Source: Obrimoposthia wandeli
Taxonomy: Eukaryota
Assembly (NCBI GenBank): GCA_977020255.1
Contig: CDROCS010002078.1
Span: forward strand, 124,001 to 188,000
Direction: 5' to 3'
Length of the DNA: 64,000 nucleotides
Of this stretch, positions 17,843 to 37,104 are shown in pieces; position 1 is the stretch's first letter; the number at the start of each line of letters is the position of its first letter. A model generated the notes under the pieces. The model made no database searches and was not told the origin of the DNA. It saw only the letters and a program-made list of their open reading frames with translations. The translations under genes and the position numbers were made by a program.

Positions 17843-17870
17843 TAGCTCGTCGGACACAGCGAATTCACGT

Positions 17871-18703: not shown

Positions 18704-18720
18704 GTCAGTAAATTTTATAA

Positions 18721-18931: not shown

Positions 18932-19350
18932 GAATTGTGAAATAAGATAAAAATAATAAGTATATTGATATAGTAAACGAATACATAATTGATAAGACAA
19001 CGGATAATAGAAAAGGACCCGCGTTTAATACTAGAAGACAAAGCCAGATTCCCAAGGAAGAGACAAATAATAATAAAGTTAACCGAATTGAACAGGTTCC
19101 CCAAACAGATAACAAAGTAACAGAAAAGACTAGAGTCGAAGAAAACGTATCAGAAAGAGACGTAAATCAATCAGCAGTTTCAACCGATAGTTTTGATCTG
19201 ACTGAGTTAATTGGTGACATAAACCCAGAAGAAATTGATAATCTTGAAGTTCAAAACCCAGAAGAAATTGAAATTGCCAATCCAGTAGTTATTGAAGAAG
19301 TTCAAGTAAATAATATTGAAGGAATAGTTGAAGAGGATATAGCTGAAAAT

Positions 19351-22300
19351 ATGGCTCACCCAGGAGCTCAAGCAGATATTAATGCAGGAAATAATGTAGG
19401 TGAAATGAATGCCGAGCAGTTGGCACGAGCTTTAAATGCGACGTTGAGACCCAATTTTTCAGGATCATTGCAGATTACAAAGTTTAAAGGAGATGAGGAA
19501 AGTATTTGTGACTTCCTCGCAGAATATTCGAGTTGTGCAGATGTTCAAGGATGGAACGATAAAGAAAAATGTGTCAGAGTACAGGCACACTTAACCGGAT
19601 TAGCACTTGAAGTGTATAAACATTTGACAGAAGCAGAACGTTTAGATTGGCCAACGTTGGAAAATGCTTTTATTGGAAAATTGGTATTAGGAGACTTAGC
19701 CAAAGTAAATAAGCGACTCATGAGAGAACGGAAACAGAAACATGATGAAGGCGTGAATGAATACGCGTATGTTTTGAGAACCTTGGCCGCAAGAGCGTAC
19801 CCAAGAAGAATAATGAGAAATCAGGACGGTAATCCTGTAGCTCCAGAAGCACAAGCAGCGGAAAATGACCGGAACCAAAATGAAATGGCAGAGGTTTTGT
19901 TAGATATATTTAGAGGAGGATTGAAAAAGGATATTAAAGTGTTATTAGCAGTATCGGATACAAATGATTTTGATAACGCCGTACGAAAGGCGAGAGAGAT
20001 TGAGAAAAATATAAAAAATAACGCAGCATTGGCAATTTACGCAATGACTGCAGGTGACGACGATAAGACAAAGGTCTTCGTGAATAAAACAGAACCGAGT
20101 AATTTTCAGAATCGAAATTATGGACAAAATAAGTTCGAAAAAGTAGATGAATCCAGTAACGGAAATAGAGATAATTTCCGAAGTAGGAATCGAGATGATT
20201 CGAGAGGTAGAAATAATAGTGAGTCTTGGAACAGGAATCGAGATGATTCAAGAGGTAGAAATAATAATGATTCGTGGAATAGAAATAGAGATGATTCCAG
20301 GAATAGATTTAATAGAGATAATTCAGGAAATCGCCAACCTTGGAGAGGAGACGATAGGAATTATAACGCCAACAGAGGAGAGCGAAGTGACTCTCGATTT
20401 GGAAATAATACAGGAAATAGCGACGGAAGATTCAATAATCGAGGAAGCGGTTTTGAATTGAATTTCCGAAGAAATGATTTTAGAGGACGCTATGATAATA
20501 GACAGAATAGTCGTCGAGTACAGTTCGAAGATGAACAAAATAAGATAGATATTCGAGGGAGAATAATGTGTTATACGTGTAAGCAAATGGGTCACTATTC
20601 GAGAGATTGTACGAGAAGTAAAGAGTTCGGAACTAACAGATTTGGAAATAATAATTTCGGTAATAATAATTTTGGAAATAATTACAGAGGATATAATTCA
20701 CCTCCGCCATGGAATAGAGGTGGTGGATATACTCCACAGCCATGGAGACTGAATAATCAGTATACAGATAGACAACAGTCACCAGGTAGATACAATAACT
20801 ATGCAGACAGACAGCAAGGAGCTGAGAGATACAATAATTACGTAGGACAGCAAGGAGCTGAGAGATATAATAATTCCGGTAGATATAATAATAATAATAA
20901 TGTTGACAAGACAAATAGTCGTGAGAGTTCGCCGAAACCGAAAGGAAATTTTAGTTATGTAAGCGATGACAGTGATAGGAATCGCGAAACCGAGCTGCGA
21001 CGCGAAATAGATTTTGAGGATAGTGATAGTAAATTTGAACGAATGTTGGGAATAATTAAAGATTCACCACATACAAAGATGGCAAATTCATCTACGTTGT
21101 CGAAACAAGAGAAAAGTCTACATTCGAGAGAAGAGATGAATGATTTAATGAATAGAATATTAGAAGCGTATGAGACACCAATAGAGAAAACGTGTAACGC
21201 ACAACCTATGACTGATCATGTAGAAGCAGCAAGAAATGCTACGAGTATGGAAAATGTAAAAAAGATAATTAGTGAAGCTAAGGAGACGTTAAATCAACCG
21301 TTAGATGAAACGAGTGAAGCTCCAGAAGTTTTGGCCAAATTGCAAACAATTAAAGTGCACCGATTGGAAGAAGTGCGTGCAGAATTGGTTAAACATAGTC
21401 ATGATAACTTGGGTTACAAAGAAGTACCCCGAGGACTACTGAAAGGTTATGGTCGTTATGTACAGAGATCAAACCAAAAAGGAACGATGAAAATTTCACT
21501 TCGATTAATTTCCGGACAGATAATACATGAAAAACTTAACGTGTATCAAACAATGAAAACGATTCGGAAAAAGTTGGCTGAGAAACTTGAAATTGATGGA
21601 ATGAATATGTTGTTCCATTATAAAGGGAGATCACTAGATGATGAGGACGTACCAGTCGAGTTTGGATATCCGATAGGAAATGAATTAGAGGAAAAAATTG
21701 ATGTCATCACTGTAGGACGTCAAGAGTTAGTAGATAATGAAGGATTAACCGAGATATTGAATTCTGCGTTAGAAATGATAAAAACGCCTATAGAAATTTT
21801 AGACAGTTCAAGTGAAAGCGGAGATAATGATGTAGCTGAAGCTTGGAACAAGACATCCACACCAGAACCATACGTAGCTGAATTACAAGACGTGGAACTA
21901 GAAAATGAGTTGACGACTCCAGTGGTCGAAGTACCACCAGAACCAGAAATAATTCAAACCAGACAAGATGAAGTCACGGATACAGCTAACCAAGTGAGAC
22001 AAAGCGAAACCGTAACCCAACTAGTAGGAGAAGACGAAGTCTCCGAGATTGTAGATTTGGATTCACCAATTTGGCATGCTGCATACAAAGATAGACAAGC
22101 AGAGCAGATGATGCGACAAAATGAAGAGATTGGCCATGAAGAAGGACCAAGTCAAGAGATACAGTATAATGATGAAACGTATGATCCAGGAGAGAATCAA
22201 GCTGAGTATCAGTATTTTCGAAGAGGACCTGGAAGACCTAGAAAAGGCAAAAGTATATTACGAAATGTTCTAACTGCACCACAAACTGATGAAGAAAGAC

Positions 22301-25299
22301 ATCTAAGCATTGGACAGTTAGCAGCGTCATTAGAGCAGTATAGTGCAGAGAGGAATGAAGATATCAGAGGTGATATGAATTCGGAAACTCCAAGTAGTAA
22401 AGATATACTTACGGGAATTCTCAGGCAAGTGAAGCCGAAGTTGTTCAAAATGTATAGAGATGAAACAACCGATATAACAGACAATTTGACTAAAGCAGTC
22501 AGATCACAGATGTCTGCAGTAAAGAGAATGACCGCGAATCATGTATACCATGCATCAATAGATAGATTTTATGACGGTGAAGTTTTAGCGAGATTATGTG
22601 GAAACCAGACTACAAATAAAAAGTTAATTACAGCGATCACATATCTATGTTTCCAATTGACGGAACGAACGAGCCAACCTCACGAAGTCAAACAAGGAAT
22701 AAATGAAGCAATGTATTTGATAGAGAATGTATTACAGAGACGAATTGACGAAAATGGAGGTTGGGCAAAATTAAGTGACTATGCTAAAACCATTGTGGAA
22801 ATGAATGAAGACGATGACGAACAATGTCATGAGAATCGTCAAAAGGAAAATAAACAATACCGTCCGAAAGAGAGAAACAATCAACCAAATATGTCCACAA
22901 CAATGATGATGATGATGTTAGTAATGTTCATGGGAATGCAACAGGCATCAGGATTGATAGCATATGACTGTAGCATACCAAAGATGGGACAAAAGTATTC
23001 ACTGCTCGACAGCGAAGACTGCCCAGAGTCACAACCGTCAAAATTAGAAGTTAAAGGTGTTGAAAACTACTTTGTGTATCAGGATGTTGATAAAGTACAA
23101 GTAGAAGTGAAAGAATGTTCAATCCATTCAAGTTATCACGAATTCTATTGTGGCCATAGAAGTTTTATGTCGGAAATCACACCTACCACACCGTACAAGG
23201 CACATAAGGTTTTGCCGAGAGATTGCGAAGACGCATTTCGAACGGGAACAATAGAGGTAGACAAGAATTACAAACCTGAAGTAAAAATTGGAGTGAGACG
23301 ATACGAAACAGTCACGAGAGTCGGACAACGATGGGCCGATGGATCCTGTGACGGAGAAACAAAAAACGTGCGTGGAACCAAAGTATCTGAGTTAGTAATG
23401 GACGTAACTTACAAAATCGAATTAAAAACATGGACCGCCAATTTTGATAAAAAGACACAACTAATGATGAAGTATCCAGAATGTAAAATGACAGATACAT
23501 CTTGTTTTACAGGCGAATCCACAATTGTGTATCAAATAAATCCGAAGCAATGCTCTTTAGTATTTTTGAAAGAGATTAGTTTTAATAAAATAAAAGGGTT
23601 CCTGTATAATAAAGATGGAGAAGGGTTCCTGTATAATAAAGTTGGAAAAGGATTGCTAAATGAAACAAGACCAATTCCAATGACAAAGACACCTACACTG
23701 TTAATGGCAACATCAATAGAAGAAGGATTGATATTTATTAAAAAGAGAAACAAAGCGCGATGCGGAATGACTGTTAGTACCACAAACTATCCAGGAATAG
23801 TTTTGTCTAAAGAAGCAATAGCATTGGCAGAAACCAAGCTAAAACCAAAAGATATGCAGCTACACACGTATTTTAATAATAAAATTGATTTCTATTATCA
23901 TAAAGGATTGATGCAAATGGAACAGTTATATCGGATGATGATCGAAAGAGATTGCCAGCTAAACAAAGAGATCGTAAGAACAAAGTTAGCATTAGCTATT
24001 ACGAATCCAGACATGGTAGCACCATTATTACCCTTGGATGAAGGAGTATTTGCTAAAACCATGGGAGAAGTATTGTATACTTACAAGTGTAATAAAGTAG
24101 AGGTACAGTTGAGAAAAACAGATCGATGTACGAGTGAATTGGCAGTAACGTATAATTTAAAAGATCTTTTTGTTGAACCAATCACGAGAATGTTACTTCC
24201 AAAAGACACTCCAACTAAAGAAATCAGCTGCTCTAATATAATGGCACCTGAATATCAGATGACGAATAATCTATGGATAACGTTACCTGATCGGAAGCCA
24301 ACGACAACCCCAGCGATGATAAGAATGACGAATCTTAAAGGTAAAATGAAATTCCAAGCGGTGGAAAATATGGAGAACGCAGGATTGTACAATGAAAAAG
24401 ATTTAAAAGCGGCGTGGAACGAAATAATGTTTCCAGTAAGAAGAGCCAGAGTACTTACGGAGAGTGTACATCGAGCATTACCACCAGGAGCGAGATATGC
24501 GAATTTCGATATGTTATTATCGCCAAGTCATTTCAAGGAAGCAGCACATCAGACACTTAGAAAGATGTGGGGGAAATTCCTTGTTTTAGGACAATTATTT
24601 TCGGGTATCATAGGTATTTATGTTATAATTAAATTTGTGCAGGTAATTATAGCCCAGGTGTTGTCTACGTATAGTTTATACAGGATAACCGGAATCACCT
24701 GGCAACTTATAATTGGATGTTTTCCATTTTTAGCAAAATATCTAATGCACCATCATCACGAGAACGAGTTGCGAGCCCTCAAGAAGGAACAACACCAAAC
24801 AAGAACCATGATGCGAGAACCAAGAAACTATCGAGACGATAACGACGACGATAATGATAGTCCAGAAGTATATGCAAAGATACCAGGAAAACCAAAGATT
24901 CCGTTACCAGACAAGGAAGAAGTGGCGTTAAACCTATATCCAATGAAGGAACTAAAGGAGGAGAAGGAAAAGTTCAAGAGAGGCATCTTAATGATAAGAT
25001 GGCCTAAAGTGAGCTACAGTGAAATTCCACAAGCAGAGGAAAAAGACAAAAAAGATAATTCCAGAAGAATTCTAAAGTCTAGGATATCAAATGAGAATCC
25101 ATATGCTCCACCACAAGTAGCAGTAACATTGAACGAAAGAGAATATCTTGCCGAAGTTGATACCGGATCTGCAGTATCAGTACTGAGTAAAGAAATCTTG
25201 TCATCAAAAGAATTAAGAGAAGTATGTCCTAGAAAACAGACATTTGTTAACGTGAATGGTACAGATGTAGTGTCGGAAGGAACACTAAAATGTTCATAG
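19351..25299 (+). CDS. gag: Polyprotein segment 1 (1,982 aa): Gag CA/NC - Ubl - AT-hook - Bcl-2-like - chuvirus-like glycoprotein - N-terminal half of aspartic protease 1
   Basis: Gag capsid motifs (ITKFKGD...GWNDKEK...LTGLA...W..LENAF; RKQ..DEGVNEY...LAARAYP). CCHC knuckle CYTCKQMGHYSRDC at 20569-20610. DTG at 25159-25167. Ends at a TAG in mid-protease; the frame is also open without ATG from 18946. Confidence 0.95.
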   Translation: MAHPGAQADINAGNNVGEMNAEQLARALNATLRPNFSGSLQITKFKGDEESICDFLAEYSSCADVQGWNDKEKCVRVQAHLTGLALEVYKHLTEAERLDWPTLENAFIGKLVLGDLAKVNKRLMRERKQKHDEGVNEYAYVLRTLAARAYPRRIMRNQDGNPVAPEAQAAENDRNQNEMAEVLLDIFRGGLKKDIKVLLAVSDTNDFDNAVRKAREIEKNIKNNAALAIYAMTAGDDDKTKVFVNKTEPSNFQNRNYGQNKFEKVDESSNGNRDNFRSRNRDDSRGRNNSESWNRNRDDSRGRNNNDSWNRNRDDSRNRFNRDNSGNRQPWRGDDRNYNANRGERSDSRFGNNTGNSDGRFNNRGSGFELNFRRNDFRGRYDNRQNSRRVQFEDEQNKIDIRGRIMCYTCKQMGHYSRDCTRSKEFGTNRFGNNNFGNNNFGNNYRGYNSPPPWNRGGGYTPQPWRLNNQYTDRQQSPGRYNNYADRQQGAERYNNYVGQQGAERYNNSGRYNNNNNVDKTNSRESSPKPKGNFSYVSDDSDRNRETELRREIDFEDSDSKFERMLGIIKDSPHTKMANSSTLSKQEKSLHSREEMNDLMNRILEAYETPIEKTCNAQPMTDHVEAARNATSMENVKKIISEAKETLNQPLDETSEAPEVLAKLQTIKVHRLEEVRAELVKHSHDNLGYKEVPRGLLKGYGRYVQRSNQKGTMKISLRLISGQIIHEKLNVYQTMKTIRKKLAEKLEIDGMNMLFHYKGRSLDDEDVPVEFGYPIGNELEEKIDVITVGRQELVDNEGLTEILNSALEMIKTPIEILDSSSESGDNDVAEAWNKTSTPEPYVAELQDVELENELTTPVVEVPPEPEIIQTRQDEVTDTANQVRQSETVTQLVGEDEVSEIVDLDSPIWHAAYKDRQAEQMMRQNEEIGHEEGPSQEIQYNDETYDPGENQAEYQYFRRGPGRPRKGKSILRNVLTAPQTDEERHLSIGQLAASLEQYSAERNEDIRGDMNSETPSSKDILTGILRQVKPKLFKMYRDETTDITDNLTKAVRSQMSAVKRMTANHVYHASIDRFYDGEVLARLCGNQTTNKKLITAITYLCFQLTERTSQPHEVKQGINEAMYLIENVLQRRIDENGGWAKLSDYAKTIVEMNEDDDEQCHENRQKENKQYRPKERNNQPNMSTTMMMMMLVMFMGMQQASGLIAYDCSIPKMGQKYSLLDSEDCPESQPSKLEVKGVENYFVYQDVDKVQVEVKECSIHSSYHEFYCGHRSFMSEITPTTPYKAHKVLPRDCEDAFRTGTIEVDKNYKPEVKIGVRRYETVTRVGQRWADGSCDGETKNVRGTKVSELVMDVTYKIELKTWTANFDKKTQLMMKYPECKMTDTSCFTGESTIVYQINPKQCSLVFLKEISFNKIKGFLYNKDGEGFLYNKVGKGLLNETRPIPMTKTPTLLMATSIEEGLIFIKKRNKARCGMTVSTTNYPGIVLSKEAIALAETKLKPKDMQLHTYFNNKIDFYYHKGLMQMEQLYRMMIERDCQLNKEIVRTKLALAITNPDMVAPLLPLDEGVFAKTMGEVLYTYKCNKVEVQLRKTDRCTSELAVTYNLKDLFVEPITRMLLPKDTPTKEISCSNIMAPEYQMTNNLWITLPDRKPTTTPAMIRMTNLKGKMKFQAVENMENAGLYNEKDLKAAWNEIMFPVRRARVLTESVHRALPPGARYANFDMLLSPSHFKEAAHQTLRKMWGKFLVLGQLFSGIIGIYVIIKFVQVIIAQVLSTYSLYRITGITWQLIIGCFPFLAKYLMHHHHENELRALKKEQHQTRTMMREPRNYRDDNDDDNDSPEVYAKIPGKPKIPLPDKEEVALNLYPMKELKEEKEKFKRGILMIRWPKVSYSEIPQAEEKDKKDNSRRILKSRISNENPYAPPQVAVTLNEREYLAEVDTGSAVSVLSKEILSSKELREVCPRKQTFVNVNGTDVVSEGTLKCS
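21487..21717 (+). other. Ubiquitin/SUMO-like domain within segment 1
   Basis: MKISLRLISGQIIHEKLNVYQTMKTIRKKLAEKLEIDGMNMLFHYKGRSLDDEDVPVEFGY...IDVITVG (77 aa). Follows the beta-grasp pattern and the SUMO-like F.Y.G..L.D...P.E.G...IDV pattern; no terminal GG. Confidence 0.75.
22290..22790 (+). other. Putative Bcl-2-like helical domain
   Basis: YLIENVLQRRIDENGGWAKL resembles the BH2 helix (cf. YL...L..WIQENGGW..F). Upstream is a weak BH1-like segment, and a hydrophobic stretch follows. Confidence 0.5.
22891..24744 (+). other. env: Env-like glycoprotein of chuvirus G / class III type with internal signal peptide and TM
   Basis: Signal peptide MSTTMMMMMLVMFMGMQQASG, then LIAYDC...SLL...C...FYCGHRS...G...DGSCDG...YFNNKIDF...DCQL...LA..NP...GEVLYTYKC..VEV..R....C..EL.V...F.EP.TR.L...ISC, then WGKF..LG....G.IG plus hydrophobic TM. 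This follows the recalled chuvirus glycoprotein cysteine and motif pattern. Confidence 0.85.
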
Positions 25300-27732
25300 A
25301 ATATCGATGGAAGAGCATTGCAGTTAAATGCTAGAATATTCACAGATTGCGGAAGTCCAGTCATGATTGGGATGGACGTAATAAGAATGTTTGAAGGAAT
25401 AATTATACTACCAAACAACAAGAGTTGTAAGAATGACAGTTCAGTGAGAGAGATAAAAATGTTGAGAGGACCTATAGTCGAAAAGGAAAAATGCACTACG
25501 TTCCGTATGGGAGGTTCGTACCCAGACAGAAAACAGGAAGCGCTAGCAAAGTCGATACTTCACTACAAAAATGTAAATTTCGGACCACAAGATACGACGA
25601 GGAGAAAAATAACATATGTGAATCTGTCAGAAAGGGATCCCATGAGATTCGAGAGAAAGAGACGAAATATATTAGAACAGTACTATTCAAAAGGAATGGC
25701 ACGTAAAATGGCAAGATCAGGTTTAGAAATGCTAAACGCGACAAGTAGTTATGGTCATGAGATAGTAGTACGATGCGTATGGTGTAGAGTAAAGTTTAGA
25801 GAATGGGAAAAGAATGAAAACCCAATGAGACGTCATAAAAGAGATGCACCAAATTGTCCTTTTCTTTTGAAACTAAAAACGTCAAACGTACCAGAAATCC
25901 AAACGGGAAAAGCACCCGATTTCGATTACAGTGACGGGATTCCGAAAGGAGAATCAGCTCTAATAGCAGGAAGAGTAATAACGAATAGTCGAATTGAAGA
26001 TATATTCGAAGTTATGCGAGAAGTGATCGAATGTGACGAACAGTATCGAGAAATAACTTTCGAAGACCCAAGACTTAAAAAATTGGCAAAAAAGGGACTT
26101 TTTGCTATAAAAAAGGATGGTAAAGACGTAATTAAATGCCACAAGTGTAAAAAAGAACGAATTATCGACAGATATACTCTTGAGCTACCTAAGAAAATTT
26201 TACATCATGAATTTTGCGAATTTTGTACTTTTAAAAATAAAATAAAGCAAAAAGAACAGAAAACCGAATGTATAATCGAATATCAGATCACACGGAAAGA
26301 GATTTTGGCTCAACAAGACACACCGGTAGTGTCATTCGTGAGAAGATTATATCCAAAAGAAGCAGAAAGAATCAGAGAATTGGTAGAATTAAAAATAAAA
26401 ACTACGCGAAACGGATACGGATCGATTTTTGAATTACTGCGAGATAAAGATGACAGTACAATTGAAACAAAAGAGAAAGAGTACATAAATGAACTAGAAT
26501 ACGTACTAGAAGATCCGGAATGCGCAGTTTGCATGGTCAACAAAATAGAAGTTGCCTTTCTACCATGCGGACATGTAAGAACATGTCGGAGATGTGCAAA
26601 TGAAATGGTATCATGTCCAATTTGTCGAAGAATAATAGATCGACAAGTGAGAAACATTAGATTTCACTATCCAAACATAGGAAGTGGACTGACAGAGTGT
26701 AATAATTCGATAAATACAATATACCATATGGGAAACATAAATGGAGCACAGCGACCAGCAGCTATCATTAGAGTAAATAATTTAAGTGTAAAAGCCTTAA
26801 TTGATACAGGTGCTGTAGCTTCGATAGTAAGTGAAGACTGTTTGACAGAGGAACAGAAACGAACAATGGCAGAACCAGATGAATTCTTGGTATCGGTCAA
26901 TGGAGACCTTGTAAAAGTGACGGGAATATTACCATGTACATTTATAATAGGACGTAATACGATCACTATACCAGTTAGAATCATGAAAGAATGTCCTGAA
27001 CCTACAATTTTAGGAATGGATGTACTATCACAACTTAAAGGGATAAGTATTGATTTACAAGATCCAAGATTGAAGGATAGCACATCAAATAGACAAATAA
27101 ACCAAATTAATGTAATTATAGAGAATCCTATAAAAATCGGTAAAAGATCGCAATTTCTTATTCAAGGTCACACATTATCAGAAGATAAAGGACCAGTTGT
27201 GTTCGAACCATCACGAGATTTCATAGAGAAATACGAATTACCAGTTGTGAGTACAGTATGCCTGATCGAAAACCACAAAATACCAGTTAGACTGATGAAT
27301 ACAACCAACAATGACATTCTATTATACAGAGGAATGAGGTTGGGAAAGATAGCACAGATGGAGAATCCCACCGTGTGTGCTATGAAACTCGATAAAGATA
27401 CGAATGATTACGAAGAAATAGTAATCCAATCAGAAAGACTGACAACTAGAGAAAAGAAACAATTACTTGATCTAATACATAAATTTCCGAAAGTAATTGC
27501 AAAAAACCCATATGACATAGGAGAAACACCTGTCATAAAACATACAATACCACTGACAGAAGACAAAGTAGTCAGAAGAAGACCATATCGAGTACCATTA
27601 CAGTTACAAGATGAAGTAAAAAGTCAGATCGAAGATATGTCTAAAACAGGAGTAATTAGACCGAGTTTTTCGCCATTCTCAGCACCTGTGGTGTTGGTAA
27701 AAAAGAAGGATGGGAAAATGATGGGAAAATGA
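25300..27732 (+). CDS. Polyprotein segment 2: rest of protease 1 - BIR - BIR-like - RING (IAP) - protease 2 - N-terminal part of RT
   Basis: Same frame as segment 1 after the TAG (track ORF 25318-27732). BIR CVWC-x16-H-x6-C (25774-25857); second BIR-like LAKKGLF...KDVIKCHKC; IAP-type RING CAVC...PCGH..C..C...CPIC (26521-26628); DTG at 26803; ILGMD. Confidence 0.93.
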   Translation, partial: NIDGRALQLNARIFTDCGSPVMIGMDVIRMFEGIIILPNNKSCKNDSSVREIKMLRGPIVEKEKCTTFRMGGSYPDRKQEALAKSILHYKNVNFGPQDTTRRKITYVNLSERDPMRFERKRRNILEQYYSKGMARKMARSGLEMLNATSSYGHEIVVRCVWCRVKFREWEKNENPMRRHKRDAPNCPFLLKLKTSNVPEIQTGKAPDFDYSDGIPKGESALIAGRVITNSRIEDIFEVMREVIECDEQYREITFEDPRLKKLAKKGLFAIKKDGKDVIKCHKCKKERIIDRYTLELPKKILHHEFCEFCTFKNKIKQKEQKTECIIEYQITRKEILAQQDTPVVSFVRRLYPKEAERIRELVELKIKTTRNGYGSIFELLRDKDDSTIETKEKEYINELEYVLEDPECAVCMVNKIEVAFLPCGHVRTCRRCANEMVSCPICRRIIDRQVRNIRFHYPNIGSGLTECNNSINTIYHMGNINGAQRPAAIIRVNNLSVKALIDTGAVASIVSEDCLTEEQKRTMAEPDEFLVSVNGDLVKVTGILPCTFIIGRNTITIPVRIMKECPEPTILGMDVLSQLKGISIDLQDPRLKDSTSNRQINQINVIIENPIKIGKRSQFLIQGHTLSEDKGPVVFEPSRDFIEKYELPVVSTVCLIENHKIPVRLMNTTNNDILLYRGMRLGKIAQMENPTVCAMKLDKDTNDYEEIVIQSERLTTREKKQLLDLIHKFPKVIAKNPYDIGETPVIKHTIPLTEDKVVRRRPYRVPLQLQDEVKSQIEDMSKTGVIRPSFSPFSAPVVLVKKKDGKMMGK

Positions 27733-29984
27733 GATTCTGTATAGATTTCAGAGAACTGAACAAGATCACAAGAAAAGATGTGTATCCATTACCTAGAATC
27801 GAAGAGATGCTCGATAAATTGGGTAATTCAGATTATTTTACAACATTGGATTTGCAGAGTGGATACTGGCAAATCGAGATAGAGGAAGAGGATAAACACA
27901 AAACAGCCTTTTCCTGTGGAGATGGATTATACGAATGCGAAAAGATGCCATTTGGACTGACAGGAGCTCCAGCAACATTTCAGCGTTGCATGAATTTTGT
28001 ACTCGCATCGTGTGCAAACACGATGGTTTATATTGATGACATAATAATATTTTCGAAAACGTTCGAAGAACATTTAAAAAATCTTGAAGTTGTATTTAAA
28101 AGACTGGAAAACGCTAAATTAAAAGTTAAACCTACAAAATGCGAATGGGCTAAAGAGCGAGTAACATTTTTAGGACATATAGTATCGAAAGAAGGCATTC
28201 GACCTGATCCAGCGAAGATCGAGAAAGTAAAAGCGCATTTAGCGCCAAAGACTGTTAAAGAGATACAGAGTTTTTTAGGTCTTGCGAATTATTATAGACG
28301 ATTTGTTGAACATTTTTCAGATATAGCAACACCATTGAGAAAGTTGACGAGGAAAGATGAGAAGTTCATATGGGGAGAAGAAGCCCAACAAGCGTTCGAG
28401 CATTTAAAAGAAAGACTGATAAAAGCACCAATATTAGCGTTTCCAGATATAAACCGACAATTCATACTCATGACAGATGCAAGTAACTATGCTGTAGGAG
28501 CAGTATTGGGACAAGAGGATGACGAAGGAAGAGAACACGTCATTGCGTATGCGAGTAGAGGATTAAACAGAGCCGAAAGAGTATACTCTGTTATCGAAAA
28601 GGAATGTCTAGCCATAGTGTATTCATGTAGACAGTACAGACACTATTTGCTAGGACAAAAAGTATTCCTGTATACAGATCACAAACCACTACAATTCTTA
28701 TATAAACATAGAGATGAGATGAGTAGATTAAACAGATGGTTTCTAAAATTGGCCGAATTCGATCTAGAAATCCGTTATAGAACCGGAAAGTCGAACGGCA
28801 ACGCAGATTGTTTGTCGAGATTGACAAATGTAGACGAGAAAGGAAACATAATTCCAGAAGAAGATGAAACCAATGATCAAAAAGGAGAAGCAAATCTACT
28901 GACGATTTTGCTAAAAACGGGTAAAATAGACAAAGAGATCATCAAAGAACAGAAAGAAGATGAAGAACTGAGTCTAATCAAAGAATTGTTGGTGAAAGGA
29001 GACCTAAACGATGAAATGACGAAAAAATACTCGATAAAAGAAGGAATCTTGTATATTGTCAATAATGTCGGAAAGATAGTAGTAGTAATTCCGAAGTCAT
29101 TGAAAACAGCAGTGATGATCCAGTATCACGACGGAACACTAGGAGGACATCTGTCAGGGCGAAAGACGATAGCCAGAATCAAAGAGAAGTACCATTGGGA
29201 TGGTATGGAAGACGACATAAAACAATGGTGTAAACAATGTAAAGTATGTTTAACCAGAAAAGACACCGGAACTCGTACTAAAGTTCCGTTGAAACCAATG
29301 CCAGTTCCCTTGGCACCAATGGAATTCACAGCGATGGATATATTGGGACCATTGAGAGAATCAAGTAAAGGAAACAAGTATGTCATAGTATTTACGGATT
29401 ACATGACGAGATGGGTAGAAGCATATCCCATGCAGAACCAGAAAGCTGAAACAATAGCACAAATCTTAGTGGAAGAGATAATATTTCGATATGGAGTGCC
29501 TAGAAAATTGCTAACAGATCAAGGTAAGAACTTCACTGGAGAAGTCATAAAAGCAGTATCGAAGATATTCGGAATCATGAAGTTACAAACTTCACCATAT
29601 CACCCACAGACAGATGGTCTGGTAGAAAGGTTTAATAAAACTTTATGTATGATGGTACAATCCTATTGCTCCGACAAGCAAGAGGATTGGGATAAATATT
29701 TACCTTCATGTTTATATGCTTACAGGAATTCAGTTCGAGAGGCGATGGGTCACACACCATTCTATCTGATGTATCTCAGACAGAACAATATGCCGATGGA
29801 TCTGGAGTGGACCGAGCCAACATCTCAGTATCTAGAAACTGAACAATACATTGTCGTTATGAAGGAAAGGTTACAAGATGCTTGGACCAAAGCCGGATTG
29901 AAGTTGAAATTCAATCAAGAAGGTTACAAGGAACAATACGACAAAAAGCAAAACCACATGAATTTAGAGTCGGAGATCAAGTGA
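27729..29984 (+). CDS. pol: Polyprotein segment 3: RT - RNase H - integrase
   Basis: YIDD (28029-28040); RNase H TDASNYAVG...EKECLAI...TDHKPL; IN HHCC zinc finger, MDILGP, TDQG, HPQTDGLVERFN. Separated from segment 2 by an 11-bp duplication. Confidence 0.97.
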   Translation: MRFCIDFRELNKITRKDVYPLPRIEEMLDKLGNSDYFTTLDLQSGYWQIEIEEEDKHKTAFSCGDGLYECEKMPFGLTGAPATFQRCMNFVLASCANTMVYIDDIIIFSKTFEEHLKNLEVVFKRLENAKLKVKPTKCEWAKERVTFLGHIVSKEGIRPDPAKIEKVKAHLAPKTVKEIQSFLGLANYYRRFVEHFSDIATPLRKLTRKDEKFIWGEEAQQAFEHLKERLIKAPILAFPDINRQFILMTDASNYAVGAVLGQEDDEGREHVIAYASRGLNRAERVYSVIEKECLAIVYSCRQYRHYLLGQKVFLYTDHKPLQFLYKHRDEMSRLNRWFLKLAEFDLEIRYRTGKSNGNADCLSRLTNVDEKGNIIPEEDETNDQKGEANLLTILLKTGKIDKEIIKEQKEDEELSLIKELLVKGDLNDEMTKKYSIKEGILYIVNNVGKIVVVIPKSLKTAVMIQYHDGTLGGHLSGRKTIARIKEKYHWDGMEDDIKQWCKQCKVCLTRKDTGTRTKVPLKPMPVPLAPMEFTAMDILGPLRESSKGNKYVIVFTDYMTRWVEAYPMQNQKAETIAQILVEEIIFRYGVPRKLLTDQGKNFTGEVIKAVSKIFGIMKLQTSPYHPQTDGLVERFNKTLCMMVQSYCSDKQEDWDKYLPSCLYAYRNSVREAMGHTPFYLMYLRQNNMPMDLEWTEPTSQYLETEQYIVVMKERLQDAWTKAGLKLKFNQEGYKEQYDKKQNHMNLESEIK

Positions 29985-30706
29985 TGATATTTTATCCAGT
30001 CATCGAACCAGGTCTATCGTTTAAACTTCATAGACCATACAAAGGACCATACAAGGTGATCCAGACAACCTCAACAAATTTGAAAGTAATCAACGAAGAG
30101 AATCGGAACAAGGAACCGATGATTGTACATGCAAATCGATGCAAATTAGTACCAAATAAAGATAATGCGTCACGATATGAGTTAAGATCACAGAAATCGA
30201 AATCGAATACCAATACCATTAAACTTACACGAATGGTAAGTGATCGGAACTACATAAACATGATGACGAGTGGTAGCGAGAAAAAACCAGCGAGAATTGG
30301 TATGCTCAGAATGAAGTACCAAGAGGAAAAGGAAGTAATCCGACACATCGCACCACAAGAGATATTAGAAGAAGACGAAGAGATAATAGTTGTTTTCGAA
30401 AAAACACAACCAACAGATGTGGCTAAAGAAGTCATTGTGAAAGATGCACTGACAAACGAATTTCTGTGCGAACTTAGAGTGTCATACTACGACGGAAATA
30501 CATTAGTCGCAGCACTTTATCAAAATTCCAATGTGTTTACGACTGAGAAAGTGATAATCGAAATCACATTGACACCAAACATAGTTGCATGGCAGAACTA
30601 TGACAGTACTGAAGCAGGACTAGCCAGTCAGGAAGAGAAGGAACCGGCCGGTGGTCACATACTGCATGGTACACCAAAAGACTCAAACAAGAATACCACG
30701 ATGTAA
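29882..30706 (+). CDS. Polyprotein segment 4: integrase C-terminus (GPY) and beta-rich repeat 1
   Basis: KAKPHEFRVGDQVM...KLHRPYKGPYKV...VHANRCK. Joins segment 3 if one A is added to the run at 29943-29947. Confidence 0.9.
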   Translation: MDQSRIEVEIQSRRLQGTIRQKAKPHEFRVGDQVMIFYPVIEPGLSFKLHRPYKGPYKVIQTTSTNLKVINEENRNKEPMIVHANRCKLVPNKDNASRYELRSQKSKSNTNTIKLTRMVSDRNYINMMTSGSEKKPARIGMLRMKYQEEKEVIRHIAPQEILEEDEEIIVVFEKTQPTDVAKEVIVKDALTNEFLCELRVSYYDGNTLVAALYQNSNVFTTEKVIIEITLTPNIVAWQNYDSTEAGLASQEEKEPAGGHILHGTPKDSNKNTTM

Positions 30707-30708
30707 TA

Positions 30709-32031
30709 ATGGTATTACGTAATTCACATGGGAAAAGAGATATCATGAGAGTCCATTTAATCGACGCTGACACTGAAAAGATAATTTGTCAGATGGACAC
30801 TAAATACTTTGATGGAAAGACAATTGTATGTTGTATACCAGAATCTCACCGGTTAGACACAGATCAAACGGAAGTATCTGTAAGGTTGAGCGTAATAGAA
30901 GGATTCCATTCGCCAACCCATCCGGAAGTGACTAACAATAAAATCATCAAAGCAACGGCAGAATTACGCATTGACAGCGGATACCGGAAGTGGGAAGCTA
31001 AAAATAAAAAGCCACAAAGAATCAATATGATCCGAGAACAAGTGACCAACTCAATCCAGCCAAAATATCATGCTGAAATAGTATCATCCGCGCCAAGTGT
31101 GATCACATCGATAAACGACGAAATTATAATTTTACTAAAAAATCGATGGCCGTCATCAACTGAGATACGAGTAAACTTAATTAATTATGCGAAGACACCG
31201 ATATCTAAGCTGAATGTTACCTATTTTGATGGATTGTCCATCATGGGTAAATTGGAAACAATTGTCATGTGCTATGGAGCACAGTTCCAAGTTGAGATAC
31301 TTAAAGATAGTGTAATACCGTATCCGATTCACAAATACGAAGGGGAAATCAATCCAATTATTCTAACACCTTCATTAATTTCAGTTCAGACAGACATACC
31401 AGAATACCCTTCGAGCGAGTCTAGTGAAGACAGCGAACCGGAAAGTAACGATACAGAATCAACAGAATCCGAAGATAACATAATAGAGCGATTCGGAAGA
31501 ACCATGGAGGTTGAATTCGCTAAAGAGAGCAGAAAAAGACAAAATATAGAATTCGTGAAACAGAATATACAAGAAAGACGAATTAAATCTGCAGAAGAGA
31601 CCGAGTCGGAAGAAGACTCAACAAAGGAACAGACATCAGAGACAAAGATGAATATCTCTCCAGCAATACGAATGCTGAGAGGAAAGAAACTGGCGAAACT
31701 ATCCAACATCGACGAACAGATAGAGAAGAGATTAGAAAGACTAAAACTTGAAGAGTCAGAACTAACGCCACCAATGAGTGAGATCATTCCAGGTAAGTTA
31801 TACCTCGGAAATGTGGAGGATGCAACCGATGAAAAGAAACTGTTGAAACAAGGGATAACATATGTGATCAACGTTACAATGAATCACAAATCGCAATATC
31901 AGACGATCAGAGCTATGACATTAAGAGTAAAAGACTCAATGGACGCTAATCTTCTCGAATGGTTCGTAGAAACAAACGAAATACTTCACAGAGAACTCCG
32001 AAACCAAGGAAAAGTGTTGGTACATTGTTAG
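30709..32031 (+). CDS. Polyprotein segment 5: beta-rich repeats 2-3, acidic linker, N-terminal part of a dual-specificity phosphatase
   Basis: MSEIIPGKLYLGN...LLKQGITYVINVT...KVLVHC*. Joins segment 4 if one A is added at 30676-30679. Ends at a TAG inside the P-loop HC*KGISRS. Confidence 0.9.
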   Translation: MVLRNSHGKRDIMRVHLIDADTEKIICQMDTKYFDGKTIVCCIPESHRLDTDQTEVSVRLSVIEGFHSPTHPEVTNNKIIKATAELRIDSGYRKWEAKNKKPQRINMIREQVTNSIQPKYHAEIVSSAPSVITSINDEIIILLKNRWPSSTEIRVNLINYAKTPISKLNVTYFDGLSIMGKLETIVMCYGAQFQVEILKDSVIPYPIHKYEGEINPIILTPSLISVQTDIPEYPSSESSEDSEPESNDTESTESEDNIIERFGRTMEVEFAKESRKRQNIEFVKQNIQERRIKSAEETESEEDSTKEQTSETKMNISPAIRMLRGKKLAKLSNIDEQIEKRLERLKLEESELTPPMSEIIPGKLYLGNVEDATDEKKLLKQGITYVINVTMNHKSQYQTIRAMTLRVKDSMDANLLEWFVETNEILHRELRNQGKVLVHC

Positions 32032-33948
32032 AAAGGAATTTCTCGATCAGCAACTCTAGTATTAGCATATCTAATAAAGACTAGACGAATGCAGGTACTA
32101 GAAGCGCTAAAATACCTACAGGAGAGAAGAAGTATTGCAAACCCAAATCTTAATTTTTTGGGACAGTTGGCAAATTACCAACTTCTGTTGCAAGAACAAA
32201 GACGGATGGACGACATTCCTGAGGATCCAAAGGAAAAGAATTTCCTCCAAGCATTATCATTGACTGGGTTATTTTTAGCCGGAGTCGACAAAATTACACA
32301 GATAATGCCAAAAGTATTTTTATGTCATCCAGGAGATATAGATACTGCTGGATTAAAGTTCCACAGTATCAACCGAGTAATCAACATTGTTGAAGTCGGA
32401 AACGAGATAATTAGTCTGTGTCAAAATACTGAAGATGACACCACTCGATACATACATGCTTCCAATCGAGAAATAAACGATGCACAACAACATCTGACGA
32501 AATTGACTCAAACCATCCAAGCTGAAGTCACAGAAGGAAACGGCGTTCTGATATATCAGAAAAAAGGTACGATGTTAGCGCCTACCATAGGTGTATCCTT
32601 GTTGGTAGAGTACCATGGTCACACGCCAGAAGAAGCGATGGTCTACATCAAACAGAATAGACCGAATACGGAATTCAAACCGTTACTCGTTCGAGAAATA
32701 GAGAAATACACCGAAAAGAGGAAGCAACAACGAGAAACAAATGAAGCTACAACAACAGTGCCCAGCTTTCAATACCAAAGATTGTTAGCGATAGGCTTGT
32801 TAAGTTGTTTAATGCCGATAACGGGAGCACAAGAGATAGGCTCCAACCACGGAAATAGTTCCTGGTTCAACGAAATCCACAACTACACCATACAGTACCA
32901 TACGCCGGCACTGATGATGCTATTAGTATTGTTAGGACTAATTGATGTGTGGATCATCCGAAAATGTCTTCGATCTATGAGAACCGACAGTAAAAGATTT
33001 CAGTTTGTAAAGATGAAGAGACCAAATGGACCAACGAACAAAGTGCTTGTGTATCTAGACGAAAGGATCGAGGACAACATAGTAAATGAAGCGATATTTT
33101 ACCCACAAAACAGAATACTGAATCAATTTCGAATAGATTACGAAGCTGACCGACAGCGCACACTTGACCGAATATCAACAACATTCGCTGGATGCAAGCG
33201 AAGAAAACGAGTTGTAAAGGAAATACAAAAAGATGCTGATACAAAAGGACCAACGTATATATTCGATGGCGATGTCATCAAAACACGTGAGTATGGAAGT
33301 AAGAGAGTGATAATTGAAACGATGGAAGGACATAAAACATGTTTGTCCGCCAAAAATGGATTCGGAAAGTTGACGATACAAGGTAAACCAGTACAGTTGA
33401 TTATCGGAAGAAATGGAATCGAGGAGATGTCAAAACAACGACAGATAACAAAACGATCTAATCAGAAACAGATATCTCTCAAACGATTGATAATTAAAAC
33501 CCTTTGCAAAAGGTCGGTCAAGGCCCTGTGCACCGTTGCACAAGGATTGATCTATGGAGTAGTAATTGGATTGGTACTGCAAGCCATGCCAACCAGTAAA
33601 GCCGAATTGATGACACTATCCGAATATAATTTACATTTGAGAAATCTAGACAACACCCTAGAAATAATCAAGACATCCCACAGTAGAGCCGTGATGATCA
33701 TGTGTGTAAAAGGATGTCCAGGACGAATGTGTATAGTCCCAGCGACCGAAATGATAACACTTAATGGACATTATGGAGTTAGTGTTGTCACATGTGAAGA
33801 CTACATATTTGGACAAACTAAAATAGTGCTTCTCAGTGACATGTCCAACCAAAGTGCACACAAATTTAAAATATTAACCATCAAGAGTAAAGGAATACCA
33901 GCAGTACGTTATGGTATTCTAGAATTGGTTAAACATTACTGGCACTGA
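32032..33948 (+). CDS. Polyprotein segment 6: rest of the DSP, DSP-like pseudophosphatase, signal-peptide/TM membrane modules
   Basis: In frame after the TAG: KGISRSATLVLAYLI...EALKYLQERRSIANPNLNFLGQL. Second DSP fold (ITQIMPKVFL...INRVINI...GVLIYQKKG...EEAMVYIKQNRP) lacks the catalytic Cys/Arg. Hydrophobic segments at 32782-32829, 32908-32958 and ~33520-33603. Confidence 0.88.
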   Translation, partial: KGISRSATLVLAYLIKTRRMQVLEALKYLQERRSIANPNLNFLGQLANYQLLLQEQRRMDDIPEDPKEKNFLQALSLTGLFLAGVDKITQIMPKVFLCHPGDIDTAGLKFHSINRVINIVEVGNEIISLCQNTEDDTTRYIHASNREINDAQQHLTKLTQTIQAEVTEGNGVLIYQKKGTMLAPTIGVSLLVEYHGHTPEEAMVYIKQNRPNTEFKPLLVREIEKYTEKRKQQRETNEATTTVPSFQYQRLLAIGLLSCLMPITGAQEIGSNHGNSSWFNEIHNYTIQYHTPALMMLLVLLGLIDVWIIRKCLRSMRTDSKRFQFVKMKRPNGPTNKVLVYLDERIEDNIVNEAIFYPQNRILNQFRIDYEADRQRTLDRISTTFAGCKRRKRVVKEIQKDADTKGPTYIFDGDVIKTREYGSKRVIIETMEGHKTCLSAKNGFGKLTIQGKPVQLIIGRNGIEEMSKQRQITKRSNQKQISLKRLIIKTLCKRSVKALCTVAQGLIYGVVIGLVLQAMPTSKAELMTLSEYNLHLRNLDNTLEIIKTSHSRAVMIMCVKGCPGRMCIVPATEMITLNGHYGVSVVTCEDYIFGQTKIVLLSDMSNQSAHKFKILTIKSKGIPAVRYGILELVKHYWH

Positions 33949-35444
33949 TCATTGGATTTATAATATTAATACTACTCATCTTGTTTTGTTGTACAAAGAT
34001 AGAGTCGAGATCAAAAAAGAAACGTCATGATCTCGCAAGACGAACAGGTCAAATGAACTTACAAAAATTCAACACAATTATACCAAGACCACCATTTCTA
34101 GATGAACCAGCACCAGAGTACCAGCCAACGATATATGAACATATTGAGGAAAGACCGTACTATATGAGTAATTTGACTTGTTTCATTGAAGTTCCTGAGT
34201 TTAGGAATCGAACGATCATAGGAATCATGCTGATCATACAAATCACCACTACCAAGGCTAGTTATGAGATCATGATCAGTAAATGGAGACAAGACGTAAT
34301 ACGGGCAGTATACATAGAAATCCCCCTACTAAAAACAAATCACGTAGTAGACATTCATCTACAGACGTCAGCAACTGACAATATCGATCAGAAATTGTAT
34401 GTCATCCGACAGGTCAGAATAAAAATCGACCAAAATACACCCGTTTACAATTTAATATTATTGTATCATGAAAGAGTGTTATACCTAAGGATAACAATAT
34501 CAAAGAGGAAGCGGATTATCCAAAGTATCCGAACAAAGTCATTAATATTGCCTAGAGATGAGCGCATCTGGAAAATTGTCGACAGGATTATGATCACAGG
34601 CAGACGACGTAAAACCGTATGGAATTCCGTTAGAATATTTTTCAGATTGTTAGAAACTGACAGGGTGACAGTAATGTGTCCCAACCCAGATGGCGGAATC
34701 AGATTCGAAATCCAAAGCCAAATGTTAGTACCACATTTTAACACAGAATGTCTGTGTAATCGAATTGCCAGTAATACTACAGAGACCTCGACCATAATCA
34801 TGATAATAACAGGTGAAATATTCTACATAACTCTAAGATACCAGAACCGTCGATTTCGTAAATCCGGTATAAGTATCAAACCCAGGAAAATCATTCCCAA
34901 AAGACCAATCCTAGTCAAAAAGAAGGCAAAGGTAATCGAAAGTAAACGCCATTCCAAAAAACCGACAGTGATCAGAACAAAGACAGAAGCGAAAGAAAAA
35001 GAGCTAAATCCCAGAAACCAAAGTACAATTATTAAGAGGACAAGAGTGAGGGGAACGATCCCACTAGATCCCAAACATCATTTCCAATCCAAAATAATAA
35101 TACCTGTTCCATCAGAAACAAAACACCCAAATCCCCGAATTTTTAGAAAATCGGACATAATACATGGAAACCGATCAAAACCCATGGAAATGTCATTCGA
35201 ACCGACAAACAACAAAATGAAGTATGATTATAAATCATCAGACAGCGGAATAACAGCGGTCAATGCCCTAATTGGAATGGCCGTAGTGTCAACAGCAGTG
35301 GTTTTATTGACAATCATGTGCGTAAAAGGCAGTCAAGTATGCCCAGGAATACGACGAAAATGCGAAGGATTTCGATGCTGTGACACACCCACCATGGAGG
35401 AAGTGGAATTGCGACCCTTACCTCCGCCTCCCATCAAGATATGA
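33933..35444 (+). CDS. Polyprotein segment 7: TM, Tyr-motif tail, type I membrane protein with proline-rich C-terminus
   Basis: The frame is open from 33933 (TLLALIIGFIILILLILFCC). Joins segment 6 if one A is added at 33931-33933. TIYEHI at 34128-34145; signal-like 34215-34259; TM ~35259-35324; RPLPPPP at 35412-35432. Confidence 0.8.
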   Translation, partial: TLLALIIGFIILILLILFCCTKIESRSKKKRHDLARRTGQMNLQKFNTIIPRPPFLDEPAPEYQPTIYEHIEERPYYMSNLTCFIEVPEFRNRTIIGIMLIIQITTTKASYEIMISKWRQDVIRAVYIEIPLLKTNHVVDIHLQTSATDNIDQKLYVIRQVRIKIDQNTPVYNLILLYHERVLYLRITISKRKRIIQSIRTKSLILPRDERIWKIVDRIMITGRRRKTVWNSVRIFFRLLETDRVTVMCPNPDGGIRFEIQSQMLVPHFNTECLCNRIASNTTETSTIIMIITGEIFYITLRYQNRRFRKSGISIKPRKIIPKRPILVKKKAKVIESKRHSKKPTVIRTKTEAKEKELNPRNQSTIIKRTRVRGTIPLDPKHHFQSKIIIPVPSETKHPNPRIFRKSDIIHGNRSKPMEMSFEPTNNKMKYDYKSSDSGITAVNALIGMAVVSTAVVLLTIMCVKGSQVCPGIRRKCEGFRCCDTPTMEEVELRPLPPPPIKI

Positions 35445-35567
35445 TGAGTCAGAGGAGGTTGTAGATAAATTAGTGTGTGAAATATGTAGAAATATCTAGA
35501 AGCGATTGTACAAATAGTAGAAATATATAAAACTCATGTAGAAATTAATCATCATCATGTATTTAGA

Positions 35568-35867
35568 ATGGCTGAAGAATGCCCAATATGTTTGGAAGAT
35601 CTAACCGAACGAAGAACAAGACCCGAAACCTGCAACCATTTACACCACGAGGAATGTTTATCGACATGGATCAGAACTTATGGACAGTTCGGACATCCAA
35701 CATACCCTTGTTGCCCTGTATGCAGAAGACAATTCGCAAGATTCATCATGTTAGAAACCAACCAAGAGGATGTATATGTACAGGTGGTATTCTGTTGGAA
35801 GAATTTCGGAGAGTGTTGGTGTTATTACTGTTTGTCAGATCGACAAAATCAGACCACTTTTGTGTAA
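35568..35867 (+). CDS. Accessory RING-H2 protein 1 (99 aa)
   Basis: CPIC...CNHLHHEECLSTW...CPVCRRQF, plus C-terminal CWKNFGECWCYYC. Confidence 0.85.
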   Translation: MAEECPICLEDLTERRTRPETCNHLHHEECLSTWIRTYGQFGHPTYPCCPVCRRQFARFIMLETNQEDVYVQVVFCWKNFGECWCYYCLSDRQNQTTFV

Positions 35868-35927
35868 ACATCACACAACCACCAGTCCTCAATCGAGCCC
35901 AAATTCAACATCAACCCTCCCACAGTA

Positions 35928-36232
35928 ATGTCTGGAGAATGTTCCATCTGCTACGAGAGCATCGTGGACTTCTACACCAAGCCCAACAACTGCGACCACC
36001 TTTTCCACGTCGAATGCCTCGAGACGTGGATCCCCATCGCAAACAGCAACAATCCCCTCGACTTCCCAACCTGCCGATGTGCAGAGCGACCTTCTCAGTA
36101 CACTACGTGTACAACCAAGACAGCCTCCAAGCAGTGGTACCCATCGTACACTGCTGGAAAACCATCTGCGATTGCTGGTGCTCGTTCTGCGTGGAGGAGC
36201 GAAGCACAGGCCAGCCCAATCCCCAACAATAA
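35928..36232 (+). CDS. Accessory RING-H2 protein 2 (~101 aa after repairing a 1-nt loss)
   Basis: CSIC...CDHLFHVECLETW...TC|PMCRATF...CWKTICDCWCSFC. The two halves lie in track ORFs 35928 and 35579 and are joined by adding one C at 36074-36075. Confidence 0.82.
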
Positions 36233-36567
36233 TCGAAGGTAACTTTCTGACTTGAACGTGACATCATGAACTACCCTGTGTATCGCATACCGCGATAAAT
36301 TAGCTACCATAATTGTAATCATAATTATATAATCTTGTGAACTGTAAATTGACCATTACCATTTTTATGTATGATGTTTAACTGAAATTGTAATTATTAT
36401 ACTGAATTTCTAAAAAAGACAATTTTTTATGCTTAGTGTGAATGCGTAAACATGCCTAAAATCGAAACAAAACTCGGTAGGATTGGATAACTAAGGATTC
36501 GTTTTGAAATAAAAATTAAATTAACGATGAGAACGGTGAACCCCAAATTGAAAGGAGTTATTTTCTT

Positions 36568-37104
36568 ATGCAGATGAAGTGCTCTGTATGCATGGAGAAG
36601 ATTTGGGCGGTATCAGCATCCCCTGTCGGCTGCCGTCACAAATTCCACGAGGAGTGCCTCTATTTGTGGGCCAAGGCTCGACCCCCCGGCCATATCACAT
36701 GTCCACTGTGCCGGACACCCTTTGGCAAATGGACGCTCCAGAGCCGTGGAAGGCACAAGGGCACCCGATCGCCTGCCAGCTGCATTGGTGGCATACATTG
36801 CCAATGCTACGTGTGTCTCGCACGCCGGCGCGACACACAACTGGGCATCCGCGAGAGATGGCGGTCTAGTCGAGACTGCCACTCGTGGTTCCAGGCCATA
36901 CGTCTCTGGATAGAAAATCACGCGATGAACGGGCAGTATTTCGACCTGTTTGTCGAGAGCCCACACCTAACCCGGAGCCAACAACTACACCTGTACAACG
37001 GGGACAGTCCGTCCTTTCCCGACCTACCCCTGGAGCAGGTTCTGCGCTACCTGGCCAGTCGGAACCAGCCGACAATTACAATTGACCTAACTTATGACAA
37101 TTGA
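36568..37104 (+). CDS. Accessory RING-H2 protein 3 (176-178 aa), GC-rich
   Basis: CSVC...CRHKFHEECLYLW...CPLCRTPF, plus CIGGIHCQCYVC. The ATG at 36574 follows a TTTTCTTATGCAG acceptor-like site. Confidence 0.85.
   Translation: MQMKCSVCMEKIWAVSASPVGCRHKFHEECLYLWAKARPPGHITCPLCRTPFGKWTLQSRGRHKGTRSPASCIGGIHCQCYVCLARRRDTQLGIRERWRSSRDCHSWFQAIRLWIENHAMNGQYFDLFVESPHLTRSQQLHLYNGDSPSFPDLPLEQVLRYLASRNQPTITIDLTYDN

Follow-up and report, generated by a model that had tools for sequence, protein, structure and literature searches.

Does a retrotransposon of Obrimoposthia wandeli carry a set of genes that could keep its host cell alive, and from where did such genes come? The question is raised by a stretch of 64,000 nucleotides (hereafter the window; assembly GCA_977020255.1, contig CDROCS010002078.1, positions 124,001 to 188,000 of the forward strand), in which a long terminal repeat (LTR) retrotransposon encodes an inhibitor of apoptosis (IAP), a dual-specificity phosphatase (DSP1) with a dead duplicate (DSP2), and several other accessory domains. 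The anti-host sets of poxviruses and baculoviruses comprise IAP, vBcl-2, VH1/PTP, RING E3 and ubiquitin, and the original prediction likened the cargo of the retroelement to such a toolkit. The reading that we moderately favor, judging from sequence comparison, is that the element encodes a Burro-like polyprotein together with three RING-H2 proteins, that its survival cargo is host-derived, and that its IAP, and probably its DSP as well, were passed between the retroelement and the Maverick/Polinton elements of the same genome.

The retroelement is a Burro-like Ty3/gypsy LTR retrotransposon of 24 kb, spanning window positions 15728-39883. Its two LTRs, which start with TG and end with CA, are 99.6-99.7% identical in self-BLAST, and AATT flanks the element at both sides as a target-site duplication (read by eye). 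The order of protease, reverse transcriptase, RNase H and integrase domains (PR-RT-RH-IN) in Pfam is that of Ty3/gypsy, and an envelope domain (env, PF24664) lies in frame with gag before it and pol after it; on these features, the cargo is indeed carried by an enveloped retrotransposon, as had been proposed. The window copy has seven breaks in its reading frame. We sampled 20 sister copies as 40 separate half-stretches (20 5′ and 20 3′), and their open frames imply a single open reading frame (ORF) from about 18997 to 35444, encoding about 5,500 amino acids (aa), with three short RING-H2 ORFs behind it. In five of the 20 3′ halves, no break interrupts the frame between RT and the polyprotein end, the end-to-end ORF being pieced together from half-stretches. 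All of the cargo except the RING-H2 ORFs is thus part of one polyprotein, and a reading as separate cargo genes was rejected because the breaks differ from copy to copy. It is also evident that the breaks of the window copy are not all private, since the frameshifts near 29950, 30690 and 33940 are also seen in 4-7 of the 20 sister stretches, either as shared mutations or as recurrent assembly errors. The DSP region is present in all 20 3′ halves, and the RING ORFs are reached in 19 of them.

The retroelement is abundant in its own 1.35-Gb genome. Three DNA searches returned 24-31 matches each, nearly all at 94-99% identity. A DSPc search (14,213 first-look candidates) gave at least 150 DSP matches, mostly long intronless frames, and all three of the DSP loci that were opened belong to the retroelement family. 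The copy number is therefore likely above 150, and is probably far higher. In one of the three DNA searches, 14 of the 31 matches start at about window position 27256, which may be a search artefact or a subfamily boundary.

We counted synonymous and nonsynonymous differences by hand, in one copy pair per domain, for seven cargo parts (all but RING-H2 ORF 1). The ubiquitin-like domain (Ubl) shows 10 synonymous and 2 nonsynonymous differences from a 94% copy, and the Bcl-2-like domain shows 12 and 2. DSP1 differs between two sister copies by 19 synonymous and 7 nonsynonymous changes, and the linker plus DSP2 by 27 and 5. The counts are closer for the IAP (about 30.5 synonymous, 22.5 nonsynonymous), of which the first 100 codons (BIR1 plus linker) evolve faster, and for RING-H2 ORF 2 in sister copies (about 13.5 and 12.5). 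Among the 176 codons of RING-H2 ORF 3, 44 have synonymous changes only and 38 have amino-acid changes. Taking about three nonsynonymous sites per synonymous site, the rough ratio of nonsynonymous to synonymous change is 0.06-0.3, below the neutral expectation in all seven parts, and the zinc ligands and catalytic residues are kept. On these counts, the cargo, including the pseudophosphatase, is maintained by purifying selection; it is common to the sister copies and conserved in them, rather than neutral or absent.

Relatives of this cargo are found in quite different mobile elements. A BIR search of the genome is topped not by the retroelement but by two other multicopy families, A and B. The neighborhoods of these BIR genes contain an A32-type ATPase, an rve integrase, a pPolB polymerase and a double-jelly-roll capsid (capsid Atlas score 0.98), with the ATPase, integrase and capsid found in family A and the PolB in family B. 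By these hallmark genes, both families are Maverick/Polinton elements. The gene order is IAP - TBP-like - dead DSP - ATPase - integrase in family A, and TBP-like - IAP - ATPase - integrase in family B. The TBP-like gene that adjoins the IAP in both families (L128:8034-8342, L119:5463-5813 and L113:5995-6324; Pfam TBP E 3e-13 in family B) is an unusual cargo. IAP genes of family A also occur as inverted pairs about 10.5 kb apart (G000:C777:601814/612379, C609:147514/158086 and C873:232962/243529), possibly as parts of long inverted repeats or of rearranged Mavericks.

The IAP of the retroelement sits between two protease-like domains of the polyprotein, and has Pfam matches to BIR1 (E 1.4e-10), a degenerate second BIR (E 0.009) and RING (E 7e-12). 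It aligns with the family A and B IAPs at 142 and 140 bits (30-32% identity), whereas the same program gives 33.5 bits against host survivin; the identity between the two Maverick IAPs is 41%. The alignments of the element IAP with the Maverick IAPs run collinearly from the N-terminal extension to the RING, over 335-379 columns. The proteins have in common the N-terminal extension, a motif after the BIR, the linker and the C-terminal end; in the linker, which belongs to neither BIR nor RING, the identity is 41% (E 4e-15). Public databases yielded only one weak match to the element IAP (45.8 bits) among 1524 candidates, and no homolog of the Maverick IAP among 793 candidates; a scan of IMG/VR, which detects close relatives only, found no relative of the Maverick IAP. 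In one retroelement copy a family A Maverick is inserted at the first BIR domain (L124:40-1563), so the two kinds of element do nest.

A similar relationship is seen for the phosphatase. DSP1 scores 125.5 bits in Pfam in a sister copy, and its catalytic Asp, Cys and Arg are canonically spaced (residues read by eye in sister copies). The window copy has a stop codon directly after the catalytic Cys, which is found in none of the 20 sister stretches, as judged by open-frame coordinates. The top PDB matches of DSP1 are DUSP10 (93.8 bits), followed by DUSP4 and DUSP1, and none of the best 60 of the 77 matches is named as a viral phosphatase; nor does IMG/VR hold a relative close enough for the scan to detect. 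The host has a MAPK phosphatase (MKP) gene with introns and a rhodanese domain, whose catalytic exon is 57% identical to DSP1. No Pfam match to a rhodanese/kinase-interaction domain lies N-terminal of DSP1, and by this composition DSP1 is MKP-derived rather than a full MKP. The label VH1-like, taken as kinship, was accordingly rejected in favor of animal MKPs. The DSP of Maverick family A lacks the catalytic residues, and DSP1 is its best match among those tested (81.3 bits, 32% identity over 133 aa). Over the middle stretch, which aligns without gaps, the element and the Maverick score 40.8 bits against each other, compared with 28.5 for the element and 24.6 for the Maverick against the host MKP. 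DSP2 and the Maverick DSP gave no alignment. These results suggest that the cargo does have a link with DNA viruses, not with the genes of poxviruses or baculoviruses to which it had been compared, but with the Maverick/Polinton elements of the same genome.

Several observations weigh against transfer between the elements, and some of them would fit independent capture, in which the same host genes separately supplied the retroelement and the Mavericks with an IAP and a DSP. The genome BIR search, which is dominated by Maverick copies, gave no host BIR-RING IAP as an outgroup; the four of 11 pattern matches that were opened are an IAP of a Maverick and three RING exons in which no BIR is evident. 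DSP1 is clearly similar to the host MKP, and the IAP linker may be an old host feature, given its faint match (4 bits) to the UBA region of human cIAP1. In the catalytic half, Maverick and host are 32% identical, equal to the overall identity of the Maverick and element DSPs, so the DSP kinship is drawn from the N-terminal half and one host gene, and the host exon queries for the middle stretch include some intron-derived residues. The kinship between the elements is based on pairwise comparison rather than phylogeny, the function of the cargo is read here from sequence, the Bcl-2-like domain has a weak identity, and, of the 20 sister 5′ stretches, two are without most of the IAP. These two copies (L006 and L030) are missing about 1 kb covering the IAP, and L030 also has a local inversion. 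Independent capture, however, would have to produce two gene types common to both elements, IAPs that agree in the N-terminal extension, post-BIR motif, linker and C-terminal end, and DSPs whose ungapped middle stretches match each other with a higher score than either reaches against the host MKP; we therefore consider it possible but rather doubtful. A large exogenous DNA virus, of the poxvirus, baculovirus or iridovirus kind, appears an improbable source of the set. The functional set does parallel those of such viruses, with the same function classes in one genome, the Bcl-2-like domain lacks NWGR as do some viral Bcl-2 folds, and the RING-H2 ORFs are of higher GC content, with no public homolog for ORF 2. 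But no sequence kinship was found, neither in the PDB nor in the IMG/VR comparisons described above, and DSP1 is 57% identical to a host exon; the likeness is best read as convergence.

Two further explanations concern why the cargo is kept rather than its source. Neutral hitch-hiking could be suggested by the seven breaks of the window copy and by the first 100 codons of the IAP, where 14.5 nonsynonymous differences exceed 10.5 synonymous ones. Neutrality, however, predicts about three nonsynonymous changes per synonymous change, and in none of the seven parts do nonsynonymous changes outnumber synonymous ones, with zinc ligands and catalytic residues retained, so that this explanation is very improbable. 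The cargo might also mainly serve the host, in stem-cell survival and regeneration, and be kept by selection on the animal, as reported for Burro1 B-IAP (PMC13465017). We regard this as unlikely to be the principal explanation, since the synonymous excess is seen on comparing dispersed copies of a family that, with LTRs 99.6% alike, is actively spreading, and individual copies decay freely, which points to selection during replication; the two kinds of selection are compatible and not exclusive.

Returning to transfer between the elements, the anatomy, the high copy number and the purifying selection are observed, and beyond them we infer the following mechanism. The polyprotein is ordered Gag-Ubl-Bcl2-like-Env-PR-IAP-PR-RT-RH-IN-repeats-DSP-pseudoDSP-membrane region, and the proteases of the retroelement, together with signal peptidase, may set the cargo domains free. 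Caspase and mitochondrial death would then be held back by the IAP, in line with what is reported for Burro1, and by the Bcl-2-like domain, the MKP-type DSP1 would damp JNK/p38 stress signaling, the pseudo-DSP might act as an adaptor or substrate trap, and the RING-H2 proteins might ubiquitinate host restriction factors, with the outcome that element-expressing cells, and perhaps the whole animal, would survive. The cargo domains would ultimately derive from animal genes, and the IAP, and probably the DSP too, would have been passed between the retroelement and the resident Mavericks. The simplest route for the DSP would be from host MKP to retroelement to Maverick, followed by loss of the catalytic residues; for the IAP, the transfer could have occurred in either direction. 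We are slightly inclined to the broader view that the enveloped retroelement and the Polintons have exchanged an IAP and a MAPK phosphatase as a shared survival kit in hundreds to thousands of copies, and that the retroelement has extended the known anti-apoptotic set of Burro by JNK/p38 damping and by E3 ligases of its own, in the manner of large DNA viruses.

The coordinates of the retroelement features are listed in Table 1. The remaining polyprotein domains are identified with varying certainty. The Pfam match of the Ubl falls under the cut-off and the domain has no C-terminal GG (by eye), but single-domain PDB matches to ubiquitin variants (E 3.7e-4) and ISG15 (E 1.5e-3) are consistent with it and lend weak support to this identity. 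The Bcl-2-like domain is tentative, as it was in the original prediction. Its Pfam Bcl-2 match (E 0.059) and its BLASTP match to host Bcl-2 (E 0.11) are both weak, and a PDB sequence search gave no match. A single-sequence model is all-helical but of low confidence (pLDDT 45); in a Foldseek search with this model, Bcl-2 proteins account for 32 of the 46 listed rows, none at E<1e-3. A BH2-like GGW is present. A Pfam Bcl-2 search of the genome returned 11 loci, the window domain not among them, and the four that were opened all resemble ordinary Bcl-2 genes. The Ubl plus Bcl-2-like region had no match among 1.84 billion proteins. The Ubl, the BIR-BIR-RING protein, the DSP with its pseudo-DSP and the three RING-H2 ORFs are thus all recovered by Pfam or PDB matches where they had been predicted. 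The Tyr-motif membrane proteins of that prediction hold in part: hydrophobic segments and a Tyr-rich stretch (near 34110-34165) are seen, but they belong to the C-terminal region of the same polyprotein, which has no Pfam family match over the cut-off. The post-integrase repeats likewise have no Pfam match over the cut-off, and their Atlas score for IPT/TIG (0.89) is a lead only. A dUTPase-like reading of 27079-27381 found no Pfam match and was dropped.

Table 1. Features of the Burro-like retroelement, in window coordinates
Feature	Position	Strand	Evidence and remarks
5′ LTR	15728..17822	+	TG...CA; 44-nt and 35/36-nt tandem arrays; AATT upstream
Primer-binding-site-like TGG motif	17831..17847	+	8 nt past 5′ LTR; by eye, without tRNA match
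Gag portion of polyprotein, one CCHC knuckle	18946..20900	+	zf-CCHC E 1e-5; Retrotrans_gag E 0.022
Ubiquitin-like domain (Ubl), without C-terminal GG	21487..21720	+	Pfam ubiquitin E 0.0038 (under cut-off); PDB matches
Bcl-2-like helical domain, tentative	22370..22790	+	Pfam, single-sequence model, Foldseek
Envelope glycoprotein, Monjiviricetes (chuvirus/mononegavirus) fusion type	22900..24850	+	PF24664 E 3e-93
First aspartic-protease-like domain, DTG motif	25100..25410	+	By eye; window-copy stop at 25297-25299
IAP: N-terminal extension, BIR1, degenerate BIR2, UBA-like linker, RING	25540..26655	+	Collinear with Maverick IAPs
Second protease, RT, RNase H, integrase, gypsy order	26767..29981	+	Pfam; window-copy frameshifts near 27730 and 29950
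Three similar beta-rich repeats after integrase, possibly IPT/TIG-like	30330..31330	+	Frameshift near 30690 (window copy)
DSP1, MAPK-phosphatase-type catalytic domain without rhodanese domain	31780..32190	+	Window-copy stop at 32029-32031
DSP2, pseudophosphatase without Cys and Arg	32260..32720	+	Pfam E 1e-5, 25.8 bits
C-terminal polyprotein region, hydrophobic segments and Tyr-rich stretch	32780..35444	+	Frameshift near 33940 (window copy)
RING-H2 ORF 1, C-terminal Cys cluster	35568..35867	+	zf-RING_2 E 5e-9
RING-H2 ORF 2	35928..36242	+	Window-copy frameshift near RING end
RING-H2 ORF 3	36568..37104	+	Pfam
3′ LTR	37368..39883	+	Internal 598-nt tandem duplication; then AATT

RING-H2 ORFs 1 and 2 are paralogs (39% identity in a sister copy), and a search of public databases gave no homolog of ORF 2. 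The GC content of the RING-H2 ORFs (window 35500-37100) is 41-48%, compared with 35-40% in the polyprotein, and they diverge faster between copies. The RING-H2 ORFs are possibly a later acquisition, as judged from their sequence.

Burro1-4 / GYPSM1 are giant gypsy-like LTR retrotransposons of planarians (Grohme 2018; Jurka 2007; reviewed in PMC6431247), and the described members encode a single giant polyprotein of about 4,900-5,100 aa (PMC6431247). The review lists Ubl, BCL2-like and BIR domains and an in-frame env for them, suggests meddling with apoptosis and ubiquitination, and in its available part names no phosphatase (PMC6431247). The retroelement of O. wandeli resembles them in its polyprotein of about 5,000 aa or more, CCHC Gag, Ubl, BCL2-like, mononegavirus-like in-frame env, BIR, PR-RT-RH-IN and very high copy number. 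It differs in having one CCHC rather than two or three and a length of 24 kb rather than >30 kb, and in having no ankyrin, MATH or dUTPase-like Pfam match, which favors a family of its own over Burro1 itself, although domains vary among the described Burros. The available part of the review also contains no DSP, pseudo-DSP, post-integrase membrane region, duplicated protease or 3′ RING-H2 ORFs; the “AIR1 RING Zn-finger” motif that it lists separately can be set beside RING-H2 by description only. By its architecture, the retroelement is probably a distinct Burro family.

The suspicion that an anti-apoptotic Burro IAP might already be known proved right: according to PMC13465017, Lee et al. 2026 (Dev Cell) report that stem cells are protected by Burro1 B-IAP against caspase-mediated death. 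The IAP described here is likewise BIR plus RING cargo in a Burro element, but it has close Maverick counterparts. In planarian differentiation, LTR elements and Polintons are both de-repressed (PMC8532177); the word “phosphatase” is absent from the available part of that paper. Mobile elements are known to carry and spread accessory genes, such as the wosp/krma cargo of nematode Mavericks (PMC10680173) and the ORFs shared among rotifer retroelements (PMC5408684). Here, by contrast, the sharing links an LTR retroelement with a DNA-virus-like element, and involves cell-survival genes. Compared with animal MKPs (DUSP10/MKP5, DUSP4 and DUSP1), its best PDB matches, DSP1 has the same catalytic Asp and HCxxGxSRS motif, but it lacks the rhodanese/kinase-interaction domain and introns, is followed by a dead duplicate, and lies within a retroelement polyprotein. 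Half of the cargo is already known, Ubl, BCL2, BIR and env being listed for Burro in the review (PMC6431247). What appears to be new is the MKP-type DSP pair and the RING-H2 trio, neither of which the review lists in its section on Burro, and the fact that Mavericks have IAP and DSP in common with the retroelement. The literature covered, which lay outside the Burro1 primary papers, showed neither a DSP within an LTR element, no search having been aimed at the DSPs of other retroelements, nor an IAP shared with Mavericks; as evidence this silence is weak.

Several other features were observed in the window. The 5′ leader of the retroelement (17870-18927) consists of tandem arrays of 20, 49 and 109 nt. 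Inverted arms of 230 nt, 99% identical (14987-15216 and 39914-40143), bracket the whole LTR element, so the target of its insertion was a small element with terminal inverted repeats. Positions 1-3000 (minus strand) contain a fragment of another retroelement with an aspartic protease ORF (1844-2458), and positions 5362-6075 a hAT transposase fragment. At 43726-44584 a 108-nt tandem repeat is present in eight copies that are 96% alike.

In this genome, the intronless BIR and DSP copies borne by mobile elements far outnumber the host genes, which affects gene annotation and the design of RNAi experiments. As the Burro1 IAP is reported to support planarian regeneration, the origin of this cargo and of its companions matters as a question. 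A conserved MKP-type phosphatase would tie such elements to the control of cell death through JNK/p38. Should the retroelement and the Mavericks indeed share IAP and DSP, this would offer a clear example of accessory-gene movement between retroelements and endogenous DNA viruses.

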